DNA of 53,651 bases from a virus (IMGVR_UViG_3300050343_000116:1-53651); one strand, 5' to 3'. Numbered from the stretch's first letter, positions 21,228-53,651 are shown. Notes: a model not told the origin generated them from the letters alone. Numbers and translations: made by a program.

Positions 21228-24200
21228 AAAGAAGGCCGTGATGGCCGTCCCTCCGAGCTGGGGGGCACAAGATAAGCGCTTTGGCGAGACTGTAAAGGAA
21301 GGTCTTGACGTGTTACTTGGTCATCGAGGACGGCCTCTTGAGCGGGCGGTTACTTTTCAGGATTTGCTAGACACCAACGTCCTAAAGCTTGCCGGCAACA
21401 TCTCGCTTTCTACAGTCATCGATTCACCATCAAGCTTTGAGCCTGTAAGTGATGACACTGGAGTACAGCAGCCCCCTGCTCCGACAAGCCTCGTGGCTTC
21501 CGGTGCCTTCCAAAACATCATCTTGACGTGGGATTTGAGATACTACGTAGGACATGCCTTTGTTGAGGTGTTCCGTCACACAAGCGACAGCATTTCTGAT
21601 GCAACGCTCTTGGCGCGTGTATCTGGGTTTACTGGCATCTTTTCGGACCCGGTTGGAACCGGTGCGAGCTTTTACTATTGGGTAAGAGCTGTAAACATTC
21701 TGGATGATATCGGCCCGTTCAATAGCTCCATAGGTGTTAACGGAACTACGCAGCCAGACGTTGAATTAATCCTAGAACTCCTTGAGGAGCAGATCACTTC
21801 GAGCGAGCTAGCTCTGAGTTTGGCAACTCCGATTGGGCAAATCGACACAATTAACGCTCTGACCACGTCACTCGAAACATATACTGGCTTCATAGAATCC
21901 TATACCGGTGACAACCTAGTTACTCGGATAGGTAGCATCGACACTTCGGTGGGCACAATTAATACCGCCATTGCAACGATCAATACCTCTCTCGGCACTC
22001 TAAATACAGCGACGAGCAATCTGCAAACGTCGCTATCAGATCTGTCAGCAAATACGGCAGACGTCTACATATCACAGACTCAGCCAGTCGGCACTGCTAA
22101 CGATCCAATCGCGGATAACTCGCGTTGGTATGACACGTCAGATAACAACACCTTACACATTTACTTTGATGGAGACGGTGACGGAGATAAAGAGTGGGTT
22201 AGCATTGAAGACCCCCGGATCGGTGACAGCGAAAGCGCAATAAGCACTTTAAATTCCGCTGTTTTTAACGCTGACAACTCCTTAAAGCTTGCAACCTCTA
22301 CCGCACTAGGTGCAACAAATACTACGGTTACTAACATCAACGGGACTGTGAGCAGTCTTTCAAGCGCGGTCACATCTCTACAGGGCGTTGTTTTTAATAG
22401 CGAAGATCAAGTGGTAGTTGCGACGACGGAAGCCCTCACTGCTCTTACTAATGATGTTACTGCGATCTATGACGGGGACGGGGAGCCCAGCTTAATAACA
22501 ACAGTGCAATCGTCTGTCACAGACCTTAATGCTGCCGTCTTTGACGGTAATAATGTCAAGCTCGCTGAGACGAGTGTTACCGACACGCTAACTAGCTCAG
22601 TTACAACTCAAGGTGAGTCCATAGGAACTCTTCAGGGGCAAGTTACATCACTTAACGCGCAAGTATTTGATGATGAAAGTCAGCTTGCACTCGCAACAAC
22701 TTCAACCGTGTCTGGTCTGACAGACAGGATAGAAGTAAATGAAGACGATATCGGAACCGCTCAAGGTCAGATTACGACCCTTAATTCTGCCGTCTTTGAC
22801 GGTAACGGTCTAAAGCTCGCCGAGACATCTGCGGTTGATACGCTGACTCAGGAAGTTGAGGCTATCTATAACGGAACAGAAAACCCAAGCCTTGTAAAAA
22901 CAATACAAACAAGTGTTACCGACCTTAACGCTGCTGTCTTTGATGGTGATGATGTAAAGCTCGCCGAGACATCTGCGCTTGATGCGCTGACTCAAGAAGT
23001 TGAGGCTATCTATGACGGAACAGAAAACCCAAGCCTTGTAAAAACGATACAGACGAGCGTTACCAGTCTTAATTCTGCTGTCTTTGACGAAAACGGCCCA
23101 AAGCTCGCCGAGACATCTGTGCTTAATGCGCTGACTCAGGAAGTTGAGGCTATCTATGACGGAACAGAAAACCCAAGCCTTGTAAAAACGATACAGGCGA
23201 GCGTTACCAGTCTTAATTCTGCCGTCTTTGACGGTAATAATGTCAAGCTCGCCGAGACGAGTGTTACCGACGGAATAAGCAGCACGGTAGAGACTCAAGG
23301 TGAGTCCATAGAAACGATACAGGGGCTTGTTACCAGCCTTAATTCCGAGGTGTTTGATGAGCAAGACCAACTTAAGCTTGCTCAGGGATCAGCTCTAGAA
23401 ACCCTGACCAATCAGGTCTCCGCCATTTATGACCCGAATTCGAATACCACTGTGATTGGCACTGTTCAGGCCGACATAACGACTCTTAACGGCGCGATAT
23501 TTGATTCAAGTAACCAAGTTAAGTTAGCAAGCTCGACCGCAGTTTCGGCTCTAACCAATGAGGTTTGGGGTGACGGAGTAAACCCTACCAGCGCAACGTC
23601 GTCTCGGATTGACGTGCTTAACTCAAGCCTCTTTGACAATGACACGGGATTAGAGGCTGTTGGTAATGCAGTTGACTTTGTAACAACAGAGGTTTTTCCA
23701 AATGGCGTCGCTAGCAGTAGCGCAATCACAAATCTTAACGCGGCAGTATTTGACGATAATAATAACGTAAAACTTGCTTCGTCCGATGCTATAGCTGTTC
23801 TGAACACTGAAGTATTTGGTCCAAACAGTGCTTCAGCAAGCCGAATAGATGCGTTGTTTACCGAGGTGTTTGTTCCGGGCGGTAGTCGACTAGCGACAGC
23901 TAGTGCATTGGAAACACTAGATGCCACTGTCAATGGTGACGGGGCAATAGCCGATAAGGTTTCTAACATTGCCGCGTCGATGTTTGTTAATGGAGACACC
24001 GAGGGAGATCTTAATTTAGCTTCGGCCGCAGCCATGGAAACGGTCACAGCCGAGGTGTTCCCTGACGGTACAAGCAATGCGTCTAGCATTGAGCAAATAT
24101 CATCGGCAGTATTTGACGATCAAGGAGATTTAAAACTTGCTTCGGCCGATGTTTTGAGGACCATTCAAACTGAGGTGTTCCCTAACGGAACTGCAAGCGC

Positions 24201-27445: not shown

Positions 27446-28167
27446 ATGAGCATTATTGGCACCGGATTTGGCTTGCGTCGCCGAGCGCAAGAAGGCATGT
27501 CGGCAGTTGCAAAGCTTGAGGCGCAGGAAAATCAGCAGCGCATGGGCCTCGATCAGGCCAGACAGGCTCAGAAGATGCAAATGTACGGAAGCTTTGCGGT
27601 ATCGGCGCATCAGTCGGGACTCCAAAAGCTATTGCTGCATATAACGCTGCAAAACCCGCAGGAGCAGAAGCTGTTAAGACACTTGCAACCCAGCAAGCAA
27701 GCAACAACGCGATTGTTCAGCAAGGGCTACAAACTCAAATTGACAATGTGATTGGTGAGCAGCTGGGTCAAAAAATTGCCGAACAGACGGCCGGGCAAGT
27801 TGGCGGAGCGGCAGGAGGTGCAGCAGGCGGAGCGGCAGGTGGTGCAGCAGGCGGAGCGGCAGGTGGTGCAGCAGGTGGCGCAGCAGGCGGAGCGGCAGGT
27901 GGTGCAGCAGGTGGCGCAGCAGGAGGTGCAGCCGCAGGCGGAGCAGCTGGCGGAGCAGCAGGAGCTGGAGCTGGAGCAGCCGCAGGCGGAGCAGCAGGCG
28001 GAGCAGCTGGCGGAGCAGCAGGTGGCGCAGCTGGAGCTGGAGCAGCAGGAGCAGCAGGAGCAGGAGCAAGTGGCGGATCAGCTCTTATGGCTGGTGTCGG
28101 TGCGCTTGCCGCACCAGTGGCGATAGGTCTTGGCGTTGCGTTCTTGCTCAACAAGTTATTCGATTAA
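27446..28167 (+). CDS. Gly/Ala-rich ejection (pilot-like) protein with C-terminal TM (fragmented by indels)
   Basis: 27446 and 27748 ORFs join; (GGAA)n tract followed by hydrophobic helix. Confidence 0.55.
27801..28075 (+). repeat. Degenerate 12-nt tandem repeat encoding (Gly-Gly-Ala-Ala)n
   Basis: GGCGGAGCGGCA/GGTGGTGCAGCA units. Confidence 0.9.
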
Positions 28168-37157: not shown

Positions 37158-38045
37158 TCAGTCCGCTCTCAACTTGCCCTCAATTCGACTTGCAGCGTCC
37201 AACTTATGAAAGTTGTTCATGTGAGTATAGCGCTGTAACGAATTAAGCGAACGCCATCCACCAATCTCCATCAGCTCACGAGTGTCAGTCTGAGCTTGGA
37301 AGTGCCATGTCGCAAACGTGTGTCGCATTGTATGAAAGCTTGTGCCCTTAGGTAGTCCGGCTAAGTCCACAGCCTTCCGCCAAGTCTTATTACAGACCGC
37401 GCTACGACTGAACGGCTTGCCGTTATTCTGAACAAAGACGCCATCAATCTTGCCTCGCAAAAATGGCCTGCGCTTTACCAATTCCTCTTGAGCACGCTCA
37501 CGTCTTTTTAAGATGTCGCGTGCATCACCATTCAGAGGAATGAGTGCCGGCTTACCATTCTTTGTTTCGGTCGACTCAATCGACATGTACCTACCGTCCT
37601 TGCTTATCTGAGACCAGCGTAGTGTCCGTACGTTGTTGTTGCGTTGTCCGCAACTCAAAGCAAACTCCACCATGTCTGCTCTCAGCGGGTCTAGCCATCT
37701 CAGTAAAGATCTAACTTGACCCGGGTCTAAGTGCAACTCTCTCATCGCTTCCGGCAATGTCTCGATTTTTGGCACACCCTCAATGACTTCAAGCTTGTCC
37801 CGTGCGTAGCACAGTGTCAGCCGTAAGTACTTGAGGTACGTGTTCACAGTCGAGTTACTAAGGCCGTGCTCGTAAAGCAGCTCCTCTTGCAGATCGTTAA
37901 TGTCTTTAGCCCGGATAGTAGAAATGTTTCTATTACCCCAGCGCTTGACCATCTGCTTGATCGCTAGTTTTGCCGCACGACTCTTATCATTACCTCTGCG
38001 TGTTTTTATTTTTAAATACCGCTCTGCTACATCTTTGAACTTCAT
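37158..38045 (-). CDS. int: Tyrosine integrase
   Basis: GQR...K...FHTMRHTFATW...GGW...RY catalytic residues; start MKFKDV with GGAG RBS. Confidence 0.93.
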   Translation of the reverse strand: MKFKDVAERYLKIKTRRGNDKSRAAKLAIKQMVKRWGNRNISTIRAKDINDLQEELLYEHGLSNSTVNTYLKYLRLTLCYARDKLEVIEGVPKIETLPEAMRELHLDPGQVRSLLRWLDPLRADMVEFALSCGQRNNNVRTLRWSQISKDGRYMSIESTETKNGKPALIPLNGDARDILKRRERAQEELVKRRPFLRGKIDGVFVQNNGKPFSRSAVCNKTWRKAVDLAGLPKGTSFHTMRHTFATWHFQAQTDTRELMEIGGWRSLNSLQRYTHMNNFHKLDAASRIEGKLRAD

Positions 38046-38092
38046 ATGACTCTCCGTGTGTATGAAGCCCCGCACCGCAGCTATACCTTATC

Positions 38093-41746: not shown

Positions 41747-42415
41747 ATGATTTTCAAACCTGCGGCTCACAAATCTCGGCACTACACCAAGCTGCCAAAC
41801 GATTTGCTGCGTGACCCAGACCTAACCCCGGAAGCCATAGGCATCCTAGCTTACCTTCTTACGCACGTTGACAACTGGCGTGTCACTCAGCGTCAGCTTA
41901 GTAACCACTTCAATTGCAGCCCCGGCCGGATTAAGAATATCGCCGATACCCTAGAGGCCTGCGGATACATACGAAGAGTTAGGTATATCGATCAGGGCAA
42001 GCATGTATTTGATTGGGAGGTATATGACGAAAAGCAAGATGTCGAAAATCGACATGTCGAAAATCAAGATGTCGAAAATCAGCACCTAAGAATAAACATA
42101 GTTACAGAAGAAACATCTACTAAGAAGAAACATTGGAAAGAAGAACTATCTGACTCCTGCCCTGAAGGCATTCCTAAACTGACGTGGCGTGAGTGGTGGG
42201 AGTACAAGGCTGGCACTCGCAAGCCGGGTAAGTCGACGATCACTAGGCAGACCCATGACTTCGAGACAATGGCCAAACACGGATTCGATTTATCAGAGCT
42301 AATCCCCTTCGCTATCAGTCGAGGATGGCAACGTATTGGGAGTCCAGACTGGGACTCGCTCAATCGATTTAAAAATAAACAAAGAACAGATGATTATCTT
42401 GCTGAGGTTAAGTAA
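41747..42415 (+). CDS. Replication initiator (winged HTH)
   Basis: YTKLPNDLLRDPDL..EAIGILAYLL...LEACGYI; C-terminal ISRGWQ; internal iterons. Confidence 0.8.
   Translation: MIFKPAAHKSRHYTKLPNDLLRDPDLTPEAIGILAYLLTHVDNWRVTQRQLSNHFNCSPGRIKNIADTLEACGYIRRVRYIDQGKHVFDWEVYDEKQDVENRHVENQDVENQHLRINIVTEETSTKKKHWKEELSDSCPEGIPKLTWREWWEYKAGTRKPGKSTITRQTHDFETMAKHGFDLSELIPFAISRGWQRIGSPDWDSLNRFKNKQRTDDYLAEVK
42039..42080 (+). repeat. Putative origin iterons
   Basis: ATGTCGAAAATC three times at 15-bp period (42039, 42054, 42069), followed by A-rich tract. Confidence 0.75.
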
Positions 42416-44256
42416 TGGATATACGTGTGCTCAAATCAGAGCTTGGGAGGTATGCCCATCAAATATGCCAAGAGTTGTTTCCCGAAGGGATCATAGAGTC
42501 GGGGTGTTACAAGGTAGGCAGCATCGAGGGGGACAAGGGACGGAGTTTTTCGTGCTACCTGCATGGCGATAAGGCTGGGAAGTGGATTGACTTTGCAACT
42601 GGCGATGGTGGCGACATGCTTGATCTCATCCAACATGGTCGAGGCATGTCACTTACTGAGGCCATGGAGTGGTCAGCTAAGCGCTACGGTATACGGGATT
42701 ACAGCCCCGCCCCAAAAATTTCGCAGTCGGCAAAGAAAAAATACTCCACCCCTGCCCCACCATCTAGAACCAGTAACAGCCTGATACATGAGTACATGCA
42801 GAAGCGTGGGTTCAGGGAGATGGGTGAGGTGTGCTTCCGGTACAAGATCTATGAGACGGAGACCCGTGGTGGGCTTGATGTCGTGTTCCCGTTCCATGAC
42901 GTCTCGGGTGACCTTGTATTCCTGAAGACAAAGCCGATGAATCATGATGGCAATCCGTCTACTCAGAAAGACCTCCGGCCGATACTGTTTGGTTGGCAGG
43001 CTATGCCGGCAAGTGCTCGCAAGGTGTGGATCACTGAGGGCGAGTGGGACGCGATTGCATGTGGTGAGCTTGGATTTCCAGCGTTGAGCGTGCCAATGGG
43101 CGGGGGGAAAGGCGCCAAGCAAACCAATTGGATCGCCAACGAATACGAGAACCTTGCCCGGTTTGAAGAGATCATCATTGCCACTGACATGGATGAGCAA
43201 GGAGATCTAGCGGCCCAAGAGATCATGAAGCGTTTAGGCGACCGGTGCTACCGGGTGAAGCTCCCAACAAAAGACATCAACGAGCTACTTCAAAAGCAGG
43301 GTTACGAGCAGTCTCGGCTGGTTCTCGAGGCGGCGTATGAAGAGGCCCGATGGCAAGATCCTGACACACTGCGCTCTGTCATGGAGTTTGAAAAAGACAT
43401 CGATGATTACTTCGATAAGTCGATCAATGACACGCAGGGGTTTGGCTCGGGGTGGAACAAAATAGACGAGGAAGACATACGGTTTCGGCCGGGCGAGATG
43501 TGGGGTATTACCGGCATCAACGGTCATGGCAAGAGCATGTGGCTAGGTCAGCTATGCCTGAATGCTGTTGAACAAGGGCAGAAGGTATTAATCGCTTCAT
43601 TCGAGATGAACCCAAAACAGACTCTTGGTCGCATGATGAAGCAGGCGGGAGGCAGCTCCGAGCCACCGAAGGACTACCGCCAAAAGCTGATGGAATGGAT
43701 GGGTGCAAACCTTTGGCTGTACGTCGACAACATAACGCCTAAGCCTGAAGACCTGATGAAGTGTTTCGAGTATGCGTACCGCCGCTACGGTGTTTCGGTG
43801 TTCGTCATTGACTCACTGACAAACATGGTTAGGCAGGACGACTTCGAGGGTCAGCAGAAATTTGTCGAGAAGGTCGTGAACTTCAAGATGACTACCGGCG
43901 CCACTGTGTTTTTGGTCACGCACTCCCGGAAGGGTGAGGACGAGCACAAAGCCCCGAACAAGTACGACGTCAAAGGTAGCGGATCGATTACCGATCTTGC
44001 CGATGGGTTTATGTCGTTGTGGAAAAACAAGCGAAAGGTCGAGCACCTCGAGCAGTGCCGAGTGTTAGGTGAAGAGCCAGACGAAAAGTTTACCAAGCAG
44101 TGGGACGTCTACCTCGAGATTCTGAAGAACCGTAACGGTGGATACGAGGGCAAGGTCGGTTTCGAGTTTGACAACCGCACCTGTCAGTACCTCGAGCGTC
44201 GATCAGGCCGGCCAAAGTATTACATCAAGTACTCCAAGGAGAATTCAAATGGATAA
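42415..44256 (+). CDS. Toprim primase-SF4 helicase
   Basis: WIDFATGDGGD, ITEGEWDAIA, ATDMDEQG, KDINE, GINGHGKS, VIDSL, LVTHSRK, KGSGSI, KNR. Confidence 0.92.
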   Translation: MDIRVLKSELGRYAHQICQELFPEGIIESGCYKVGSIEGDKGRSFSCYLHGDKAGKWIDFATGDGGDMLDLIQHGRGMSLTEAMEWSAKRYGIRDYSPAPKISQSAKKKYSTPAPPSRTSNSLIHEYMQKRGFREMGEVCFRYKIYETETRGGLDVVFPFHDVSGDLVFLKTKPMNHDGNPSTQKDLRPILFGWQAMPASARKVWITEGEWDAIACGELGFPALSVPMGGGKGAKQTNWIANEYENLARFEEIIIATDMDEQGDLAAQEIMKRLGDRCYRVKLPTKDINELLQKQGYEQSRLVLEAAYEEARWQDPDTLRSVMEFEKDIDDYFDKSINDTQGFGSGWNKIDEEDIRFRPGEMWGITGINGHGKSMWLGQLCLNAVEQGQKVLIASFEMNPKQTLGRMMKQAGGSSEPPKDYRQKLMEWMGANLWLYVDNITPKPEDLMKCFEYAYRRYGVSVFVIDSLTNMVRQDDFEGQQKFVEKVVNFKMTTGATVFLVTHSRKGEDEHKAPNKYDVKGSGSITDLADGFMSLWKNKRKVEHLEQCRVLGEEPDEKFTKQWDVYLEILKNRNGGYEGKVGFEFDNRTCQYLERRSGRPKYYIKYSKENSNG

Positions 44257-46196: not shown

Positions 46197-46218
46197 AAAA
46201 ACCCTACGGTTGTAGGGT
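46195..46218 (-). terminator. Terminator at the end of the minus-strand early block
   Basis: ACCCTAC-AACC-GTAGGGT followed by T-run. Confidence 0.6.
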
Positions 46219-46389
46219 CATCACAAGTAGTTTCATGGCTGGCTCTGGCATCTTCCGGTAGCCTCTGGTTCCGGGTGATCGGGTCCAGTTGTAAACGCCC
46301 TCAACCTTCATCCCCAGCAGTTCAGCTATTTCTTTTGCTGACAACCCGCGCCTACGCATTATGAGCTTCAGTGCTTCGTTGTTATCCAT
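46204..46389 (-). CDS. Small HTH DNA-binding protein
   Basis: GLSAKEIAELLGMKVEGVYNW...RKMP. Confidence 0.75.
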   Translation of the reverse strand: MDNNEALKLIMRRRGLSAKEIAELLGMKVEGVYNWTRSPGTRGYRKMPEPAMKLLVMTLQP

Positions 46390-48379: not shown

Positions 48380-48418
48380 AAAAAAAATCGGGGCGGGGAA
48401 AGAAAACCCACCACCCCA
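48380..48418 (-). terminator. Rho-independent terminator
   Basis: GGGGTGGTGGG...CCCCGCCCC stem then GA and 8 T on minus strand. Confidence 0.7.
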
Positions 48419-48425
48419 GTGCCTG

Positions 48426-48695
48426 TTATTCGTAAGGGGTAAGACCACGGGGTAGAGAGCGACCCTGCTTGAGTAGACGCAAGAACTCCTTAACGGTGCC
48501 GGGGAATCCTGAGCCCTGCTCGTTGAACTTGGAGATGTCTCCAAACCAGCAGTGGTCGGGGTCGAGGATACCTCGCTGGAATGCCATGCCCTGCACCTCA
48601 GCCCAGTCTGCATCGTTTTGGTAAACCGATCGGCAGATACGGTCACCGATTGGTTGCTTCTTGAAGCCCTGAAGCTTCACGACTTTGTTGTTCAT
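48426..48695 (-). CDS. Early protein, paralog A
   Basis: Close paralog of 49034-49294; AGGAGG RBS. Confidence 0.8.
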   Translation of the reverse strand: MNNKVVKLQGFKKQPIGDRICRSVYQNDADWAEVQGMAFQRGILDPDHCWFGDISKFNEQGSGFPGTVKEFLRLLKQGRSLPRGLTPYE

Positions 48696-48729
48696 ACAGT
48701 CCTCCTGTTGGACGGTAGAGTGGTGAATT

Positions 48730-48785
48730 CCACAGACGCCTCACGGCGTTTCGGTCGGTATTCCTCCGACAGCTCGTCAGTGCGG
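48730..48785 (-). ncRNA. Type I hammerhead ribozyme (HHR-A)
   Basis: CCGCA CUGACGA G(CU)GUCGG AGGAAUA CCGACC GAAA CGCC GUGA GGCG UC/UGUGG; GUC cleavage predicted between 48735 and 48734. Confidence 0.88.
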
Positions 48786-48863
48786 GGTTAGTACAGCGGC
48801 GCATAAAGCGCCATGATGAAAACGAAATTTAGCGATACAGGATGAACACTTTCTGAATGTCGC

Positions 48864-49037
48864 TCATGATTTTTTCTCCTTAACGACTTCCGCGAACTCA
48901 CGCAGTCGGTTGTCGGTTGCCAACTTCTTGATGGCTTGCTTGTACACATGCTGTGCGCCCATGCGGCTGAGACCGATCTCTTTGCCGATGTCCGCAAAGG
49001 TCATCTCGATGCCTTCGGGCAGATTGTTCTTGCTCAT
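48864..49037 (-). CDS. 57-aa sigma70 region 4-like HTH protein (not in ORF track)
   Basis: MTFADIGKEIGLSRMGAQHVYKQAIKKL; AAGGAGG RBS; ATGA coupling. Confidence 0.65.
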   Translation of the reverse strand: MSKNNLPEGIEMTFADIGKEIGLSRMGAQHVYKQAIKKLATDNRLREFAEVVKEKKS

Positions 49038-49294
49038 GACTGGCTCCTCCTTTTGCCACTGCGCAGGATGGACAGGAACTCGGAGACTGTTCCGGCGAAA
49101 CCAGAACCTTGCTCGTTGAATTTTGCGATCTCACCGAACCAGCAGTGATCGGGGTCTAGGATTCCACTCTCGAACGCCATCCCCTGCACGACTGCCCAGT
49201 CGCGGTCATTTTGATAAACGGACCGGCATATGCGGTCACCGATAGGTTGCTTTTTGAAACCCGTGAGTTTCACGACATTGTTTTTCGTGCTCAT
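49034..49294 (-). CDS. Early protein, paralog B
   Basis: Close paralog of 48426-48695. Confidence 0.8.
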   Translation of the reverse strand: MSTKNNVVKLTGFKKQPIGDRICRSVYQNDRDWAVVQGMAFESGILDPDHCWFGEIAKFNEQGSGFAGTVSEFLSILRSGKRRSQS

Positions 49295-49521
49295 GACTCA
49301 TTCCTCATTGTTGAAGCGTTAAGCTCGTCGACCTCGCGCTGGTGACTGTCCGGCATCTCGTCCTCGTCTGCCCCACACAGACCACAAGACAGCTGAGTGG
49401 CTTTGTGTTTGATGTATTTATCTGGACCTCCCTCACACTCGCAGTCCCAGAAATTTGGATTAAGCTTGGGGCTGTACCAATCCTCCTCGCTGATATGTTC
49501 TGGTCTTGTATTCGAGTTCAT
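49291..49521 (-). CDS. Small Zn-binding protein
   Basis: FWDCEC...CGLCG...PDS. Confidence 0.7.
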   Translation of the reverse strand: MNSNTRPEHISEEDWYSPKLNPNFWDCECEGGPDKYIKHKATQLSCGLCGADEDEMPDSHQREVDELNASTMRNES

Positions 49522-50348
49522 GCGGCTTTCTCCTCGTGGGTAAATGAGGCCTTTGATGGCCTCTTGAAAAATGCAAATTTAGGGTCGTCTTGAGACACCG
49601 TGAGCGTTGCGGTAAAGGTGACGTGTGATCCTTTGCCTGCCTCGTTGAGGCTGTCCGGCTTGGTGCCCCAGACCTTGAACCCCCGGTCATCGAGAACAAG
49701 CATTTTGACGACCACTGAGTGGTATGAGTAATACCCGTCCTCGGCTCGGGTTCGGAGTATCTCGCCAGAGATCTCTACGCGGCCCTCAGGGGCATCCTCC
49801 GCCGCCTCGTACTCTGCCTGCTCGATTGCAATTCGCTGAGCTTCAGCGGCACGTTTGGGCGCTTCAATGTAGTCCTCGATCATGGTCACTACATCCTTGC
49901 AGACCGTGTCCAGATACAGATGACAGACCTGCCCATCGCGGCCGTCAAACACACTGCCGTGCCCGACAGGTAGCTCCTGCTGAAGCCCGCCCACAATTTC
50001 CTGAGCCAGATCAGCTGGGACGTAGGTGATGCGGCTGGTGTTGGACCCGCCGGAGCTTGGCTTGGGCTCGCCCGTCGGCAAGTACTCGCCACCCATCGCG
50101 ACCTTGTGGTGCTCGACAACGCCGGCCCCCGTTGGGTCTTCCACATACCAGACCCAGTCGTAATGATCGCAAGGTGCGTGGAGGCGCCAATCAGCCCCAA
50201 GAGTGGGCTCGATGCCATCATTAAGATCAGCGGCATTAGAGATCAGCCGGGTCATCCGACCTTTGCGGCCGGACTCCGACTTTGCGAGGTACGCGCGGTA
50301 CCGGTTGAGCACGTCAGTAATGAGTGCCTGAGTGTCTGAATGGATCAT
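49518..50348 (-). CDS. Early protein with C-terminal OB-fold-like region
   Basis: GRVEISGEI...KMLVLDDRGFKVWGT...VTFTAT...DDPKFAFFKRP; GGAGG RBS. Confidence 0.7.
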   Translation of the reverse strand: MIHSDTQALITDVLNRYRAYLAKSESGRKGRMTRLISNAADLNDGIEPTLGADWRLHAPCDHYDWVWYVEDPTGAGVVEHHKVAMGGEYLPTGEPKPSSGGSNTSRITYVPADLAQEIVGGLQQELPVGHGSVFDGRDGQVCHLYLDTVCKDVVTMIEDYIEAPKRAAEAQRIAIEQAEYEAAEDAPEGRVEISGEILRTRAEDGYYSYHSVVVKMLVLDDRGFKVWGTKPDSLNEAGKGSHVTFTATLTVSQDDPKFAFFKRPSKASFTHEEKAA

Positions 50349-50551
50349 GCCGCCACCTCCTCGCGTCGTCGCAATTCGCCTCTGCAATACCAGAACTCAT
50401 CCCAGTACTGCCCGGACTTCGGCCCATGCGGCATCGCCTCAAGTGCCCGCCAGCAGTCCATGGCGACGTACTCCAGAGAGTCGCTGGAGCGCTTCTTGCA
50501 GAGCGCCTGATACTCGCTGTGCCATTGGTGTTGCCCGTATGAGTAATTCAT
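50345..50551 (-). CDS. Hypothetical protein
   Basis: YWDEFWYC..ELRRR; GGAGG RBS and ATGA coupling. Confidence 0.7.
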   Translation of the reverse strand: MNYSYGQHQWHSEYQALCKKRSSDSLEYVAMDCWRALEAMPHGPKSGQYWDEFWYCRGELRRREEVAA

Positions 50552-50829
50552 GCCGCCACCTCCTGCTTCGCCTTGAGACGGTTGTGCGCTTCCTGCACGT
50601 CAATGCCGATAGATGCCAGCTTGCGCTCTACGGTAAAGACTCGCTGTGCGGCGGTGTCGACCCACTCATCGATGAACTCAGGCACAAAGCCGTCGAGCGT
50701 GTTGCTGTAATGTCGCTTGCGATCGAGCGCGTAACCACAGTCTCGACGGGCGTCTACAAGCTCTGCGATGTCGTCAGCGATAAGGCTGGCCAGAACAAGG
50801 CAAATTGGATTGTTGGTGATGTCGCTCAT
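50548..50829 (-). CDS. Hypothetical protein
   Basis: GGAGG RBS and ATGA coupling. Confidence 0.7.
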   Translation of the reverse strand: MSDITNNPICLVLASLIADDIAELVDARRDCGYALDRKRHYSNTLDGFVPEFIDEWVDTAAQRVFTVERKLASIGIDVQEAHNRLKAKQEVAA

Positions 50830-51068
50830 GCCGTCACCTCCCGGTACTCGTTGCCAGTGACCTGCACGTAGCGCTCAGTGGCGCCCATGTGGTGGCCGGT
50901 GAAGTCGTAGATTGGTGCACTGAGCTGAACCACCCCAGCGGCCCGGTCGTGCCACTTGGTGCTGAAGCTGGCCATGTTCTGGCCGAAGAACCGCAGGGTG
51001 TCCGCGGTGAAGAAATACGGACCAAGAACGCCGGCCTGTTTAATTTGTGCGGGTGTTGGTTTTCTCAT
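50826..51068 (-). CDS. Hypothetical early protein
   Basis: MRKPTPAQIK...PYFFTADTLRFFGQ; CAGGAG RBS. Confidence 0.7.
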   Translation of the reverse strand: MRKPTPAQIKQAGVLGPYFFTADTLRFFGQNMASFSTKWHDRAAGVVQLSAPIYDFTGHHMGATERYVQVTGNEYREVTA

Positions 51069-51102
51069 GTTGATCTCCTGTTGATCAGCAGTCGGGTGGA
51101 TT

Positions 51103-51159
51103 CCCGTGACGCCCCGGAGGACGTTTCGGCTCGTGTCCAGCGAGCCATCATCAGACGGG
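51103..51159 (-). ncRNA. Type I hammerhead ribozyme (HHR-B)
   Basis: CCCGU CUGAUGA (U)GGCUCG CUGGACA CGAGCC GAAA CGUCC UCCG GGGCG UC/ACGGG; cleavage predicted between 51108 and 51107. Confidence 0.88.
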
Positions 51160-51375
51160 CTAAAAAATGAGATTGCTGACATCGGTCTTGCAGAGCTTGC
51201 CTCCCTCAACCCGGTACACATCAATCGAGTCGAGTGCCCTGATTTTTGCCCGAGTCCGAACCATCCACTCAGAACCCTCAACTGCGTTGAGATCTGTTCG
51301 GGTGAAGTCGGAGAGGCGCTTGCACTTGCGTGCCAAGCCGAGCCCGTTGGGATTGTTAGCTGAGATGTAATACAT
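51160..51375 (-). CDS. 71-aa protein flanked by two hammerheads
   Basis: AGGAGG RBS; stop codon abuts stem I of HHR-B. Confidence 0.7.
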   Translation of the reverse strand: MYYISANNPNGLGLARKCKRLSDFTRTDLNAVEGSEWMVRTRAKIRALDSIDVYRVEGGKLCKTDVSNLIF

Positions 51376-51408
51376 GGTGACCTCCTGTTGGTCGTAAGCG
51401 GTGGATTT

Positions 51409-51465
51409 CCGCAGACACCCCGAAGGGTGTTTCGGCCGGTTTCCCTCCGGCTCTCGTCAGTGCGG
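51409..51465 (-). ncRNA. Type I hammerhead ribozyme (HHR-C)
   Basis: CCGCA CUGACGA G(A)GCCGG AGGGAAA CCGGCC GAAA CACCC UUCG GGGUG UC/UGCGG; cleavage predicted between 51414 and 51413. Confidence 0.9.
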
Positions 51466-51660
51466 TGCCTTGCTCAGGCAGGCCTTGCAGTCGGTCATGT
51501 GGGGAGACTCTCCCTCGACCTCGAACCCGTCCCCATAGCTGGGGATGGCTCGACCGCAAAGCGTCGTTGTCTCGTCGTCGGTCAAGTGGACCTTGGACAC
51601 GGGACCAAGTCGGTCCCGATAAATCCCAATCCACTGACTCCACCTCACTGCCTCCCTCAT
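51457..51660 (-). CDS. Small Zn-binding-like protein
   Basis: VHL...TLCG...DCKAC; CAGGAG RBS; stop codon lies in the HHR-C core. Confidence 0.65.
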   Translation of the reverse strand: MREAVRWSQWIGIYRDRLGPVSKVHLTDDETTTLCGRAIPSYGDGFEVEGESPHMTDCKACLSKAPH

Positions 51661-52220
51661 GCTGTCAGCTCCTGTTGATCGCGAAGCTCCATGACGCACT
51701 GGCAAACCATCTCTCGATCGCAAGTGTCACCGTCGAATGGAAAGTCTGGCCTACTTACCAGACGCATCAGGTAGCCTTGATAGGCCTCGTCCCAAGTCAT
51801 GGGCTCATGTCTCCCGTCGTCGTAAATTCCGCCGGGTCCGTAGAAATCCATGCAGTAGTCAATAAACTCGTTCACGTCCGCGGGGAGATAACTCTTCATG
51901 CTGTCACCCCCCCAAGCGGCTGAGCCGTCCTCGATGGCCAGCTCCTCGCGCCAGACCTCAAGCTGGACCTCTGACCCGCTTTTCTTGAGTAGCGCATGAG
52001 CCTCGTCATGAATCTGGTCGAGCTGATCAGCGGTCCAAGTGATGGATTCGCAGTGCGCGTGCTGGCCTGCCTTGGATAGCTCAGCCTCAGCCTGCTCGAG
52101 CGCGATCAGGGATTTGCGTAATGCGGCAAATTCGGTCTGTCGGCCTACATGCACTTGGACGGCCTGACGGGTCCACTCTGAGTACTGCTCGATGTCGTGC
52201 TTCATTGTTAGGTCAAACAT
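51657..52220 (-). CDS. Hypothetical ORF, probably two genes (second starts at 51899) fused by a homopolymer indel
   Basis: Internal G-run-TGACAGCATGA junction like neighbouring gene junctions; FYGPGGIY...FDGDTCDRE motif in the second half. Confidence 0.55.
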   Translation of the reverse strand: MFDLTMKHDIEQYSEWTRQAVQVHVGRQTEFAALRKSLIALEQAEAELSKAGQHAHCESITWTADQLDQIHDEAHALLKKSGSEVQLEVWREELAIEDGSAAWGGDSMKSYLPADVNEFIDYCMDFYGPGGIYDDGRHEPMTWDEAYQGYLMRLVSRPDFPFDGDTCDREMVCQCVMELRDQQELTA

Positions 52221-52249
52221 AGTTATCTCTCCGTGTGGTTTGGTCTGGG

Positions 52250-52534
52250 TTAGACGAGGTAAGGCGTGTAGCCGTGGAATGACTTGTAGGCCTTGCCGAA
52301 TGCGTCCAGCTCACGCTGGGGCAGATCCCAGACGTAGGCATCCTGATACCGGTCGTACAGCTCACTCTCCTTGTCCTCCTGCCGCATGGCGACGTCGTGG
52401 TACCGGTCGCTGTCGGGATCGAGTGCGTCCAGCTTGAGCTGGTGCTTATCGACCACGGCGCAGTAGCGGCGGTCTGCCTCGTACAGGTGGTTGAGTGCTC
52501 GCTGGTGCTTGGCGTTGATTGCTGTGTGGTTCAT
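52250..52534 (-). CDS. First early gene, hypothetical protein
   Basis: ACCACACGGAG RBS; 94 aa. Confidence 0.7.
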   Translation of the reverse strand: MNHTAINAKHQRALNHLYEADRRYCAVVDKHQLKLDALDPDSDRYHDVAMRQEDKESELYDRYQDAYVWDLPQRELDAFGKAYKSFHGYTPYLV

Positions 52535-52594
52535 GTCTAGCTCTCCGTGTGGTTTGTCACAATTGACACATGCCGGTCAGCGACCGGGCACGTA

Positions 52595-52625
52595 ATTATA
52601 AAACACAAGAGATTTTGCATGTCCA
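52595..52625 (-). promoter_or_regulatory. Probable early promoter
   Basis: Perfect TATAAT at 52600-52595, TGGACA upstream at a non-ideal 19-nt spacing; AT-rich divergent region. Confidence 0.45.
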
Positions 52626-52724: not shown

Positions 52725-53012
52725 ATGGATTTACAGCAGACCTTGTCAAGTATTGACGGCAAGCTCGACCGCTTGTCTGCGGACGTTGCGGCCCTCTCAA
52801 ATCAGGCCAGTAGGATAGATGAGCGAATGATTGGACAGGATGCGCGGCTCAAGCGGCACGAGATGAGACTCGACCAAATGGAGTTCGATCAGCGTGAGAT
52901 CCAGCTGGCAGTAGCGAAGGCTCACGGCCGTGGCGCGATGATGGAACGAGCGGCTTGGATAGTGTTTGCGGCGGCCCTTACCCTAGGCCAAAAATTTATT
53001 GCCGCGGGATAA
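52725..53012 (+). CDS. XhlA-like coiled-coil membrane protein
   Basis: Coiled coil followed by WIVFAAALTLG TM segment. Confidence 0.55.
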   Translation: MDLQQTLSSIDGKLDRLSADVAALSNQASRIDERMIGQDARLKRHEMRLDQMEFDQREIQLAVAKAHGRGAMMERAAWIVFAAALTLGQKFIAAG

Positions 53013-53071
53013 AAAACAACCCACCCCACTGCCGGTCTCTCCTGTATGTGAGTAAGGCAAGGACGTATGTA

Positions 53072-53542
53072 ATGACAGAACGAAAGCTGACCATCAAACA
53101 AGAACGATTCATTGACGAGTATCTGCTCACCGGCAACGGAACAGACGCCTGTCGTCGGGCTGGGTACAGTCAGAAGAGCCAGAACTGCCTCAGGGTGCAG
53201 TCAACTGAGAACCTAGCCAAACCTAACGTAAAAGCAGAGATCGAGCGCAGGAGGGCCGTTATGGCTGAAGAAACACAGGACAGACGTGCGAAATGGGTAT
53301 CCCGTCTCGAGGAGCTGGGAGAGTCGGCAGAGAAGGACGCCGACAAACTGAGGGCCATCGAGGGGCTGTTCAAGGCTGAAGGCTGGCTTGCTCCGGAACA
53401 GAAAGAAATTACGACCTTTGAGTCTTCTTTTTTGGCGGATTTGGAGCTTGACGACGAGGAAAATGGGCCGGGCTTGCGGGCGGACAATTTGCTGGTGGTC
53501 GACTTTGGTAGCGATAACAACGACTTAGGCGATCAGGACTGA
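53072..53542 (+). CDS. terS: Terminase small subunit
   Basis: LTIKQERFIDEYL..GNGTDACRRAGYS...ENLAKPNV. Confidence 0.9.
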   Translation: MTERKLTIKQERFIDEYLLTGNGTDACRRAGYSQKSQNCLRVQSTENLAKPNVKAEIERRRAVMAEETQDRRAKWVSRLEELGESAEKDADKLRAIEGLFKAEGWLAPEQKEITTFESSFLADLELDDEENGPGLRADNLLVVDFGSDNNDLGDQD

Positions 53543-53651
53543 ACCTTTGCTAGGTTCGACTCCTTGAATCCATCAGATCCAGAGGTCGTGCGGTCGGGTA
53601 TGGGGGGGGATAGGCGTCAGGCGGGGGCGCTGTCAAACACTTGGTACCATG
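53292..53651. repeat. Direct terminal repeat, right copy
   Basis: Matches 1-361. Confidence 0.97.

Follow-up and report, generated by a model that had tools for sequence, protein, structure and literature searches.

The viral record IMGVR_UViG_3300050343_000116, a stretch of 53,651 nucleotides (nt) that was analysed at full length and is called the window below, carries three type I hammerhead motifs between the genes of a minus-strand block. These elements, copies A, B and C, are all in gene sense and lie within 2.7 kilobases (kb). We consider it highly probable that they are real ribozymes, whereas their action as units that segment the messenger RNA (mRNA) and standardise its leaders seems to us evenly balanced; the reading that we moderately favour overall is that working type I hammerheads cut a polycistronic transcript into messages with standard leaders. 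The three same-sense copies flank genes in what appears to be one transcription unit of a phage, as in clustered phage hammerheads, and the window is very likely a genuine new example of an arrangement already described for prophages since 2011, not a new kind. The new, testable parts are a hairpin that would reuse one strand of stem I after cleavage, and mosaicism at the edges of the hammerhead-plus-leader cassette.

The hammerhead core is defined by C3 U4 G5 A6 N7 G8 A9, G12 A13 A14, an A15.1-U16.1 pair and H17, which is not G. When the minus strand was read, every one of these positions was found in all three copies, each with three stems, exactly where an earlier note on this DNA had placed them. 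Stem I is open, both RNA ends leaving the structure there, and stems II and III are closed by loops, which is the type I topology. Copy A has stem I CCGCA/UGUGG (48785-48781 with 48734-48730, one G-U pair), the core CUGACGA with GAAA and GUC, stem II GUCGG/CCGAC with a G-C closing pair and a 2-nt bulge, loop II AGGAAUA (48765-48759) and stem III CGCC/GGCG with the loop GUGA. The corresponding parts of copy B are stem I CCCGU/ACGGG (51159-51155 with 51107-51103), the core CUGAUGA plus one extra U, with GUC, stem II GGCUCG/CGAGCC, loop II CUGGACA (51140-51134) and stem III CGUCC/GGGCG with the loop UCCG. Those of copy C are stem I CCGCA/UGCGG (51465-51461 with 51413-51409), the core CUGACGA with GUC, stem II GCCGG/CCGGC plus a G-C pair with a 1-nt bulge, loop II AGGGAAA (51446-51440) and stem III CACCC/GGGUG with the loop UUCG. 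The 7-nt loop II and the 1-2 extra nt at the base of stem II, both remarked on in the earlier note, are seen in all three. Cleavage is predicted at C48735/U48734 (A), C51108/A51107 (B) and C51414/U51413 (C), so that the 3' products would begin at 48734, 51107 and 51413. The UGA of the CUGA box of copy C (51459-51457) doubles as the stop codon of the upstream open reading frame (ORF), and the stop codon TAG (51162-51160) of the ORF upstream of copy B abuts stem I.

A strict descriptor comprising the core, GAAA, U-H and the three stems was applied to both strands of the 53,651-nt genome. It matched three times, versus a mean of 0.01 matches per dinucleotide-shuffled genome; a single match arose in one of 100 shuffles. 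We also built a covariance model, R1, from 47 family members and ran it over both strands of the whole window with filters off. Exactly three strong matches were found (85.3, 79.4 and 67.8 bits), the next scoring 11.9 bits.

Relatives were collected with a tail-specific DNA pattern, consisting of the 3' half of the ribozyme plus the tail, that was run on viral contigs. Of 36 loci returned, 34 contained a full hammerhead by R1; the remaining two (L005 and L026) are not hammerheads. In total R1 gave 65 matches in 37 sources (393,741 nt), several loci having two or three. The core is intact in 64 of these 65, the sole exception being cut off by the end of its locus, and the loss of the core in related phages, for which the earlier note had advised looking, was not seen. 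Cleavage triplets in the 47 distinct sequences are GUC (44), CUA (2) and GUA (1), all of them NUH. Ten whole records carry 1, 2, 2, 1, 1, 1, 1, 2, 1 and 1 copies, and three copies per genome is the upper end of the range. When the 276-amino-acid (aa) protein of the operon was used as the query, only two near-identical contigs were recovered. The tail pattern was also run on 596 gigabases of bacterial and archaeal genomes, where it gave 21 loci, roughly the number expected by chance, only one of which (L056) is a hammerhead. As sampled, the family is a phage family. L056 lies at 180-248 on the minus strand of an 8.9-kb contig of a Luminiphilus metagenome-assembled genome and has the core CCGAUGA in place of CUGAUGA, but still reaches 81 bits; we read it as a tolerated variant or else as a dead copy. 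It gives a weak hint of a gammaproteobacterial host, the bacterial genomes providing no firm host assignment.

Among named phages, a blastn search with a 3.3-kb region gave only matches of 58-72 nt, all of them hammerhead, in three records from two phages. These two, Faecalibacterium phage FP_Brigit and Flavonifractor phage Castelnaud, are cultured gut phages with the same hammerhead type (60 and 66 bits). In FP_Brigit the stop codon TAA abuts stem I, loop and tail pair as UGGC/GCCA, a GCGGG/CCCGC hairpin is present, and a Shine-Dalgarno (SD) sequence and an ATG follow. The Castelnaud element terminates a plus-strand ORF, with the TGA inside the CUGA box, and lies within a minus-strand 'hypothetical protein' call.

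The alignment of the 47 distinct sequences extended from stem I to 17 nt beyond the cut. Changes on both sides of a pair were seen at 4 of 5 pairs in stem I, 5 of 6 in stem II and 4 of 6 in stem III. Pairing was kept in 100%, 87.6% and 99.3% of cases in stems I, II and III, with up to five pair types in stem I; the stems were required by the descriptor, so that these percentages hold partly by construction and only the variety of pair types is informative. The covariation score of the whole structure was 0.459, versus 0.142 for shuffled alignments, none of 500 reaching the observed value, and 0.05-0.07 when partners were slid. The earlier observation that the stems differ among the copies yet keep pairing is extended by compensatory changes in 47 relatives, and the proposed covariation check was positive for the stems and for a pseudoknot.

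In this pseudoknot, loop II positions 3-5 pair with the 3' tail directly after stem I. Neither it nor the refolding hairpin described below was demanded by any search step. The three core pairs are formed in 45 of 46, 45 of 47 and 46 of 47 sequences; one is GC in 36 and AU in 9, and another is AU in 39, UA in 4, CG in 2 and GC in 1. A pseudoknot helix of at least 4 base pairs (bp) is present in 40 of 47 sequences, whereas loop-shuffled controls averaged 9.4 and never exceeded 18 in 1000 trials; it is also present in 12 of 12 elements that fall outside the search pattern. The tail segments involved in the window are 48729-48724 in copy A (GAAU/AUUC), 51102-51097 in copy B (UGGA/UCCA) and 51408-51402 in copy C, and the middle pair is A-U in copy A, copies B and C having G-C there. 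By this pairing pattern, the tertiary contact between loop II and the 3' tail that is expected of hammerheads is predicted to be present. Such pseudoknots are needed for fast cleavage at 0.5 mM Mg2+ according to Perreault et al. (2011; PMC3088659), who also report that compensatory mutations restore activity.

Predicted cleavage would leave leaders of 39, 39 and 38 nt, all three containing CAACAGGAG, in agreement with the earlier note. That note took the distance to the start codon to be fixed, which is correct for the window at 38-39 nt; across 45 distinct family members the distance varies from 26 to 61 nt. The narrow spacing in the window reflects homology among the three units of hammerhead and leader (74% mean column identity). 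A 39-nt leader recurs in 14 family members, which are the close relatives of the window that share the CAACAGGAG leader. An SD sequence and start codon lie 26-61 nt after the cut in 45 of 46 distinct elements with enough flanking sequence. On the other side, an upstream frame open for at least 35 codons stops between -9 and +6 nt from stem I in 42 of 46 elements, the -9 class using the UGA of the CUGA box and being ambiguous in some cases.

For the 3' strand of stem I another partner is available 6-7 nt downstream, where the 5' strand of this stem occurs a second time. This refolding pairing reaches at least 4 bp in 43 of 47 sequences, whereas partner-swapped controls averaged 13.9 and never exceeded 23 in 1000 trials. 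Two of its pairs are free of the search pattern; these show 4-5 pair types each and are formed in 35 and 43 of the 47 sequences. L013 and window copy A retain the pairing through G-U alone, although their two strand copies differ; in window copy A, CCGCA and CCAC both pair with UGUGG. Because some copies pair only via G-U, selection appears to act on RNA pairing and not on a DNA direct repeat. A target-site duplication was considered as the source of the repeated strand and rejected, given the G-U-only pairing and copies that differ as direct repeats. Minimum-energy folds of the 3' product have a 5'-terminal hairpin in all three window copies, and in 39 of 45 family members with 0-2 unpaired bases. 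The window folds share one order, with one free base, a 4-bp hairpin, a short spacer, a hairpin containing the SD sequence and then the AUG. By a loose criterion the SD sequence is inside a small hairpin in 43 of 45 members. SD regions behind hammerheads (n=31) are more stable than those of 378 other SD-ATG starts at the same loci (median -4.2 versus -2.1 kcal/mol; one-sided Mann-Whitney p=0.0007), a difference that is suggestive only, the sequences being related.

The minus strand from about 52534 to 46204 contains roughly 20 small ORFs. Between 52534 and 48426 the hammerheads occupy the three largest measured gaps between ORFs (81, 91 and 168 nt), and the other measured junctions are a 29-nt gap or 4-nt overlaps; the junction from 51657 to the next gene was left out of this comparison because the start of that gene is uncertain. 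The seven ORFs between copies B and A overlap their neighbours by 4 nt, the first junction being 50826/50829. No good minus-strand terminator was found between a promoter-like site near 52600 and position 48418. A terminator-like hairpin at 48380-48418, which the consensus terminator scan missed, sits directly after the 89-aa ORF; it may end the hammerhead-bearing transcription unit, splitting the minus-strand block into two units. As to the operon context claimed earlier, the gene sense, the intergenic gaps and the ribosome-binding site and AUG after each copy were all found, and the single transcript is the part that has only been deduced.

From the motifs, their covariation, their context and the predicted folds, we infer the following course of co-transcription, cleavage, refolding and effects on stability. 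Stems I (5 bp), II (5-6 bp) and III (4-5 bp plus the A15.1-U16.1 pair) would form as the polycistronic RNA is made, and loop II would pair with 3-5 nt after stem I in a pseudoknot that keeps stems I and II side by side. The RNA would then cut itself after the C of GUC, giving an upstream piece with a terminal 2',3'-cyclic phosphate, its 3' end structured by stems II and III, and a downstream piece that begins with a 5'-OH. Stem I, by then an intermolecular 5-bp helix, would dissociate, and its 3' strand would re-pair with the second copy of the 5' strand downstream. The resulting 5'-terminal hairpin, with one unpaired base, would make the cut one-way and shield the new 5' end, and the second small hairpin would present the SD sequence. 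Four messages are predicted: one of ~1.2 kb (three genes), one of 306 nt (the 71-aa gene), one of 2,373 nt (seven genes) and one of ~355 nt (the 89-aa gene). The standard leader would uncouple the stability and translation of each downstream message from upstream sequence.

Several points weigh against this reading. The check with Rfam hammerhead models that the earlier note had recommended was negative: over the window Rfam 15 gave no match at gathering score (RF00163, RF00008, RF02275, RF02276, RF02277), and RF00163, RF02275 and RF02277 gave none on the genome at E≤10. Sub-threshold searches at E≤10, on 4 kb and on 396 nt, returned only the RAGATH-1 hammerhead RF03152, which reached 21.1 and 23.0 bits on copy C only, below its cut-off of 56.3 bits, and RF02276, which reached 14 bits versus a cut-off of 37, in the wrong register. 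We take the Rfam miss as a gap in the curated models and not as evidence against the motif, the check being negative because those models do not cover this hammerhead subfamily. Further adverse points are the 1-2 extra nt between A9 and the regular stem II in each copy and the energetics of the uncut RNA, where nearest-neighbour calculation with the pseudoknot ignored places the hammerhead fold 0-4.9 kcal/mol higher than the unconstrained minimum. Before cleavage the refolding hairpin could be a competitor of the active fold, and the pseudoknot may shift the balance between these folds of near-equal energy. The family sample is biased, one element per locus having matched a pattern that fixes the GG of stem I, the tail and the CC after it, and its sequences are related by descent, so that the shuffle controls overstate significance. 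The block is also only presumed to be co-transcribed; a consensus promoter scan that required a 16-18-nt spacer found no minus-strand site near 52600. The Castelnaud hammerhead has no SD sequence or start codon behind it, and the link to a downstream gene is not universal.

The effect on stability is a further weak point. A 5'-OH end is a poor entry point for RNase E, and the earlier note concluded that the cut mRNAs are stabilised. An internal-virion protein of the window is 31-34% identical to Vibrio and Achromobacter phage proteins (among the matches listed), and records of Stx-converting phages also match it; a structural module like those of Vibrio and Stx-converting phages suggests a proteobacterial host, in which RNase E would be present. 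The same hammerhead type occurs in Firmicutes phages as well, and stabilisation by a 5'-OH is not to be assumed for every host. That part of the earlier note was not established, since the outcome varies with the host: the glmS ribozyme of Bacillus subtilis leaves a 5'-OH product that RNase J1 degrades (PMC3328962).

The operon was also compared by blastn with nine related loci. Breakpoint positions, taken at face value, often coincide with the edges of the hammerhead units: similarity blocks start at stem I at 51159 in L002, L014, L017, L030 and L032, at 48785 in L002 and at 51466 in L020 and L032, and end at 48719 in L011 and L036, at 51065/51066 in L030 and L032, and at 51364/51373 in L002, L020, L030 and L032. 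One and the same unit of hammerhead and leader stands before other genes in L020, L030 and L032. Judged from these alignments, the units look like mosaic joints between phages.

Active ribozymes might instead have their main job in the upstream message or in down-regulation, the standard leader being secondary, which we regard as unlikely. In one version they would give the upstream message a defined, structured 3' end after its stop codon, independent of a terminator; in the other, downstream expression would be lowered through decay of the 5'-OH product or lost translational coupling. The most constant context does lie upstream, in the position of stem I within -9 to +6 nt of a stop codon in 42 of 46 elements, with the abutting TAA of FP_Brigit and the TGA inside the CUGA box of Castelnaud as further instances, and the Castelnaud ribozyme has neither SD sequence nor start codon behind it. 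Down-regulation has a precedent in B. subtilis, where a ribozyme-made 5'-OH end sends the downstream RNA to RNase J1 (PMC3328962). An SD sequence and start codon nevertheless follow within 61 nt in 45 of 46 elements, and because blocks of interphage homology reach from stem I's first base up to the start codon (51466-51373 and 51159-51065), the ribozyme travels with the downstream leader. A conserved 5' hairpin on the 3' product is also hard to square with its destruction.

The mosaic joints raise another alternative, in which the ~95-nt units are mainly selfish or recombinational linkers, or parts of an excised, circularised RNA, and any effect on expression is incidental. Blocks that begin at stem I and end at the hairpin or the start codon would fit such linkers, as would the hammerhead plus leader in front of different genes in L020, L030 and L032. 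We nonetheless judge it quite improbable. Strict purifying selection on the core (64 of 65 intact) and on the pseudoknot points to catalysis and not just to DNA homology, the elements always run in gene sense, and they are placed between a stop codon and an SD sequence. As for circles, the 3' strand UGCGG of copy C does not pair with CCCGU of copy B, nor ACGGG of copy B with CCGCA of copy A. Because neighbouring stem I strands do not match, excised segments could not rebuild a hammerhead for self-ligation, and self-circularisation of the segments between ribozymes was dropped. Splicing or circular products are raised as a possibility in the text of PMC3088659, whose authors detected neither. 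That the elements are chance look-alikes or dead relics without cleavage is hardly credible, the sub-threshold Rfam scores, the extra nt at the base of stem II and the CCGAUGA core (instead of CUGAUGA) of L056 being set against three matches where 0.01 are expected per shuffled genome, compensatory changes in every stem and in the pseudoknot, and no core decay across 64 full-length relatives.

The reading of the elements as segmenting ribozymes has close relatives among known systems. RNase III cuts the double-stranded RNA of phage T7 early polycistronic transcripts, leaving a 5'-phosphate and a 3'-OH. The window would resemble T7 in that a phage polycistron is cut at structured intercistronic sites into defined mRNAs; T7 needs a host protein, whereas the window RNA would cut itself and leave a 5'-OH and a 2',3'-cyclic phosphate. 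Prophages in which genes are flanked by several hammerheads are described in PMC3088659, with triple arrangements in Clostridium scindens, Azorhizobium caulinodans and Agrobacterium tumefaciens (flanking ardA). The same text reports in vitro cleavage of three tandem arrangements, one set of which was also cleaved in E. coli, and proposes that long phage transcripts are processed to operon- or gene-length mRNAs. The earlier note, which named isolated phage hammerheads as prior art, understated these clusters, and the cutting of a polycistron that it put forward is the standing hypothesis of this paper and of a 2019 review (PMC6765202) and is not new. In that review the processing idea is repeated, the purpose is called undefined and the function elusive for most, and more work on the processing of polycistrons is said to be needed. 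A 2026 study of RNA viruses (PMC13725137) places type I hammerheads just upstream of start codons and sets DNA phage matches aside as previously described.

The window resembles the prophage clusters of Perreault et al. in having several hammerheads around single genes or short blocks, in flanked genes that vary and in pseudoknots that dock stems I and II. Cleavage was shown for those clusters, whereas that of the window hammerheads is predicted. We found no description of the stem-I-reusing hairpin, the SD hairpin or the mosaic joints in the literature, the supplements of PMC3088659 lying outside what was covered; the passages of that paper that were covered mention no conserved 5' hairpin reusing the stem I strand, no SD hairpin and no coincidence with mosaic joints, and its supplementary alignments may hold the subfamily. 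The core, the open stem I and the closed stems II and III are shared with the type I model RF00163, from which the window copies differ in the 1-2 extra bases at the foot of stem II, in the 7-nt loop, in the missing match at E≤10 and in having a pseudoknot between loop II and the 3' tail instead of a loop-bulge contact. RAGATH-1 (RF03152), the best Rfam match to copy C though below threshold, is similar in that its stem II loop takes part in a pseudoknot; in the crystal structure of 2024 (PMC11300833) the loop partner is an extra stem-loop 5' of helix I and stem II has about one pair, unlike the 5-6 bp of stem II and the single-stranded partner 3' of stem I in the window.

For the hammerhead-leader unit as a whole, the closest functional analogue would be the engineered RiboJ, in which the hammerhead from tobacco ringspot virus satellite RNA and a 23-nt hairpin stand before the ribosome-binding site (PMC6206723). 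RiboJ raised mRNA about twofold and protein 2-10-fold, an effect that its authors credit possibly to the terminal hairpin. In both cases upstream sequence would be removed by a ribozyme and a standard, hairpin-containing leader left before the ribosome-binding site. RiboJ is placed behind promoters and its hairpin is a separate add-on, whereas the window unit stands between cistrons and would take its hairpin from the 3' strand of stem I; being built from this strand, the window hairpin would form only when stem I opens. With the glmS ribozyme, too, a bacterial mRNA leader cleaves itself, and what becomes of the message depends on the 5'-OH product. This ribozyme is ligand-dependent and destabilising via RNase J1 (PMC3328962), whereas the window copies have no evident ligand pocket and carry a protective-looking hairpin on the 3' product.

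We propose, tentatively, an extension of the segmenting reading that we think possible and somewhat doubtful: the ~95-nt unit of hammerhead, stem-I-reusing hairpin and SD hairpin may be a portable, self-insulating intercistronic cassette, a natural counterpart of RiboJ, with a one-way switch and a joint for swapping accessory genes. The swap joint is suggested because the cassette is conserved while the surrounding genes are not. If the proposal holds, the same five bases would complete the ribozyme and, once it has cut, switch to a terminal hairpin that prevents re-ligation and caps the mRNA, the cassette would be the joint at which marine and gut phages exchange accessory genes, and each acquired gene would arrive with its own processing site and ribosome-binding leader. 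The role of hammerheads in bacteria and phages is still open, and this family offers a regular, testable setting for it: a ribozyme at a stop codon, a covarying pseudoknot, a stem-I-dependent hairpin, an SD hairpin and the next start codon. FP_Brigit is a cultured phage with the same layout, which makes RNA-end mapping and core mutants feasible in the laboratory. Since Rfam 15 is blind to the subfamily, phage annotation pipelines will miss such hammerheads; in two deposited phage records the hammerhead overlaps or sits within an annotated 'hypothetical protein'.

Table 1. Positions of the hammerheads, leaders, neighbouring genes and other features; positions refer to the window unless another record is named
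Feature	Position	Strand	Remarks
Hammerhead A, type I	48730-48785	minus	67.8 bits with model R1
Hammerhead B, type I	51103-51159	minus	85.3 bits with model R1
Hammerhead C, type I	51409-51465	minus	79.4 bits with model R1
Leader A, 39 nt	48696-48734	minus	AUG 48695-48693
Leader A, 5' hairpin	48733-48720	minus	GUGG/CCAC; predicted fold
Leader A, SD hairpin	48717-48695	minus	predicted fold
Leader B, 39 nt	51069-51107	minus	AUG 51068-51066
Leader B, 5' hairpin	51106-51093	minus	CGGG/CCCG; predicted fold
Leader B, SD hairpin	51087-51071	minus	predicted fold
Leader C, 38 nt	51376-51413	minus	AUG 51375-51373
Leader C, 5' hairpin	51412-51398	minus	GCGG/CCGC; predicted fold
Leader C, SD hairpin	51393-51379	minus	GACC/GGUC around AGGAGG; predicted fold
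Promoter-like site	52595-52625	minus	TGGACA-19 nt-TATAAT; by eye; upstream of first gene (AUG 52534)
ORF ending inside hammerhead C	51457-51723	minus	up to 88 codons, start uncertain; last gene of predicted segment 1
71-aa ORF	51160-51375	minus	only gene of predicted 306-nt segment between cuts C and B
Seven tightly packed ORFs	48864-51068	minus	80, 93, 68, 276, 76, 86 and 57 aa; predicted 2,373-nt segment, cuts B to A
89-aa ORF	48426-48695	minus	after hammerhead A
Terminator-like hairpin plus 8 U	48380-48418	minus	-18.3 kcal/mol for 59 nt folded; z-score -0.88 versus shuffles
Terminator-like hairpin plus T-run	46200-46219	minus	end of minus-strand gene block
Integrase	37158-38075
Primase/helicase	42415-44256
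Small terminase subunit	52955-53542
RecE-like exonuclease			encoded in genome
Tail-fibre and internal-virion proteins			encoded in genome
FP_Brigit hammerhead	L068 1506-1571		MG711465.1 52974-53039
Castelnaud hammerhead	L067 1201-1271		ON453903.1 1216-1286

Searches of PHROGs and Pfam with 20 operon proteins gave only families of unknown function and weak hints of helix-turn-helix and sigma region 4 domains. The 57-aa protein has a weak likeness to sigma-70 region 4 (18.1 bits, below the Pfam cut-off), and the ORF that ends inside hammerhead C has no PHROG or Pfam match. Because the operon proteins are without informative family matches, early or anti-defence roles have no support, and the description of the operon as 'early' in the earlier note was not established. 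The 89-aa ORF is paralogous to the 86-aa ORF (49034-49294, minus strand), with 62 of 77 residues identical. Another repeated leader, CAAACCACACGGAGAG (minus strand, 52201-52242 and 52515-52556), is common to the first two genes of the block and has no ribozyme.

Upstream of hammerhead A, the 78 nt at 48786-48863 (minus strand) contain no convincing ORF after the 57-aa gene. A frame with a TAA 2 nt before stem I of this copy stays open over 69 codons, although in doing so it runs into the 57-aa gene. The 28 nt preceding hammerhead A are kept in L017, L020 and L032. Small hairpins lie next to two of the copies on the minus strand: GGCGC/GCGCC at 48798-48812, 12 nt before stem I of A, and UGCCU/AGGCA at 51466-51480, abutting stem I of C. 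They were considered as part of the motif and rejected, none being found before B.

The record is a whole virus, and the carrier of the three hammerheads is a temperate marine phage, the associated sequencing runs indicating seawater as the setting. Bases 1-361 recur at 53292-53651, and the unique genome length is ~53.3 kb once this repeat is discounted. The two ends are identical over 300 nt, differ by 1 nt in length near a G-run and are then identical over 50 nt; the repeat is either a terminal repeat or a circular assembly overlap, the IMG/VR label being 'linear'. Two further repeats were noted: ~22-33 tandem units with a 12-nt period at 27738-28130, within a 139-aa ORF (27748-28167), and 144-nt repeats at 22772-23258, inside a 1,424-aa tail protein.

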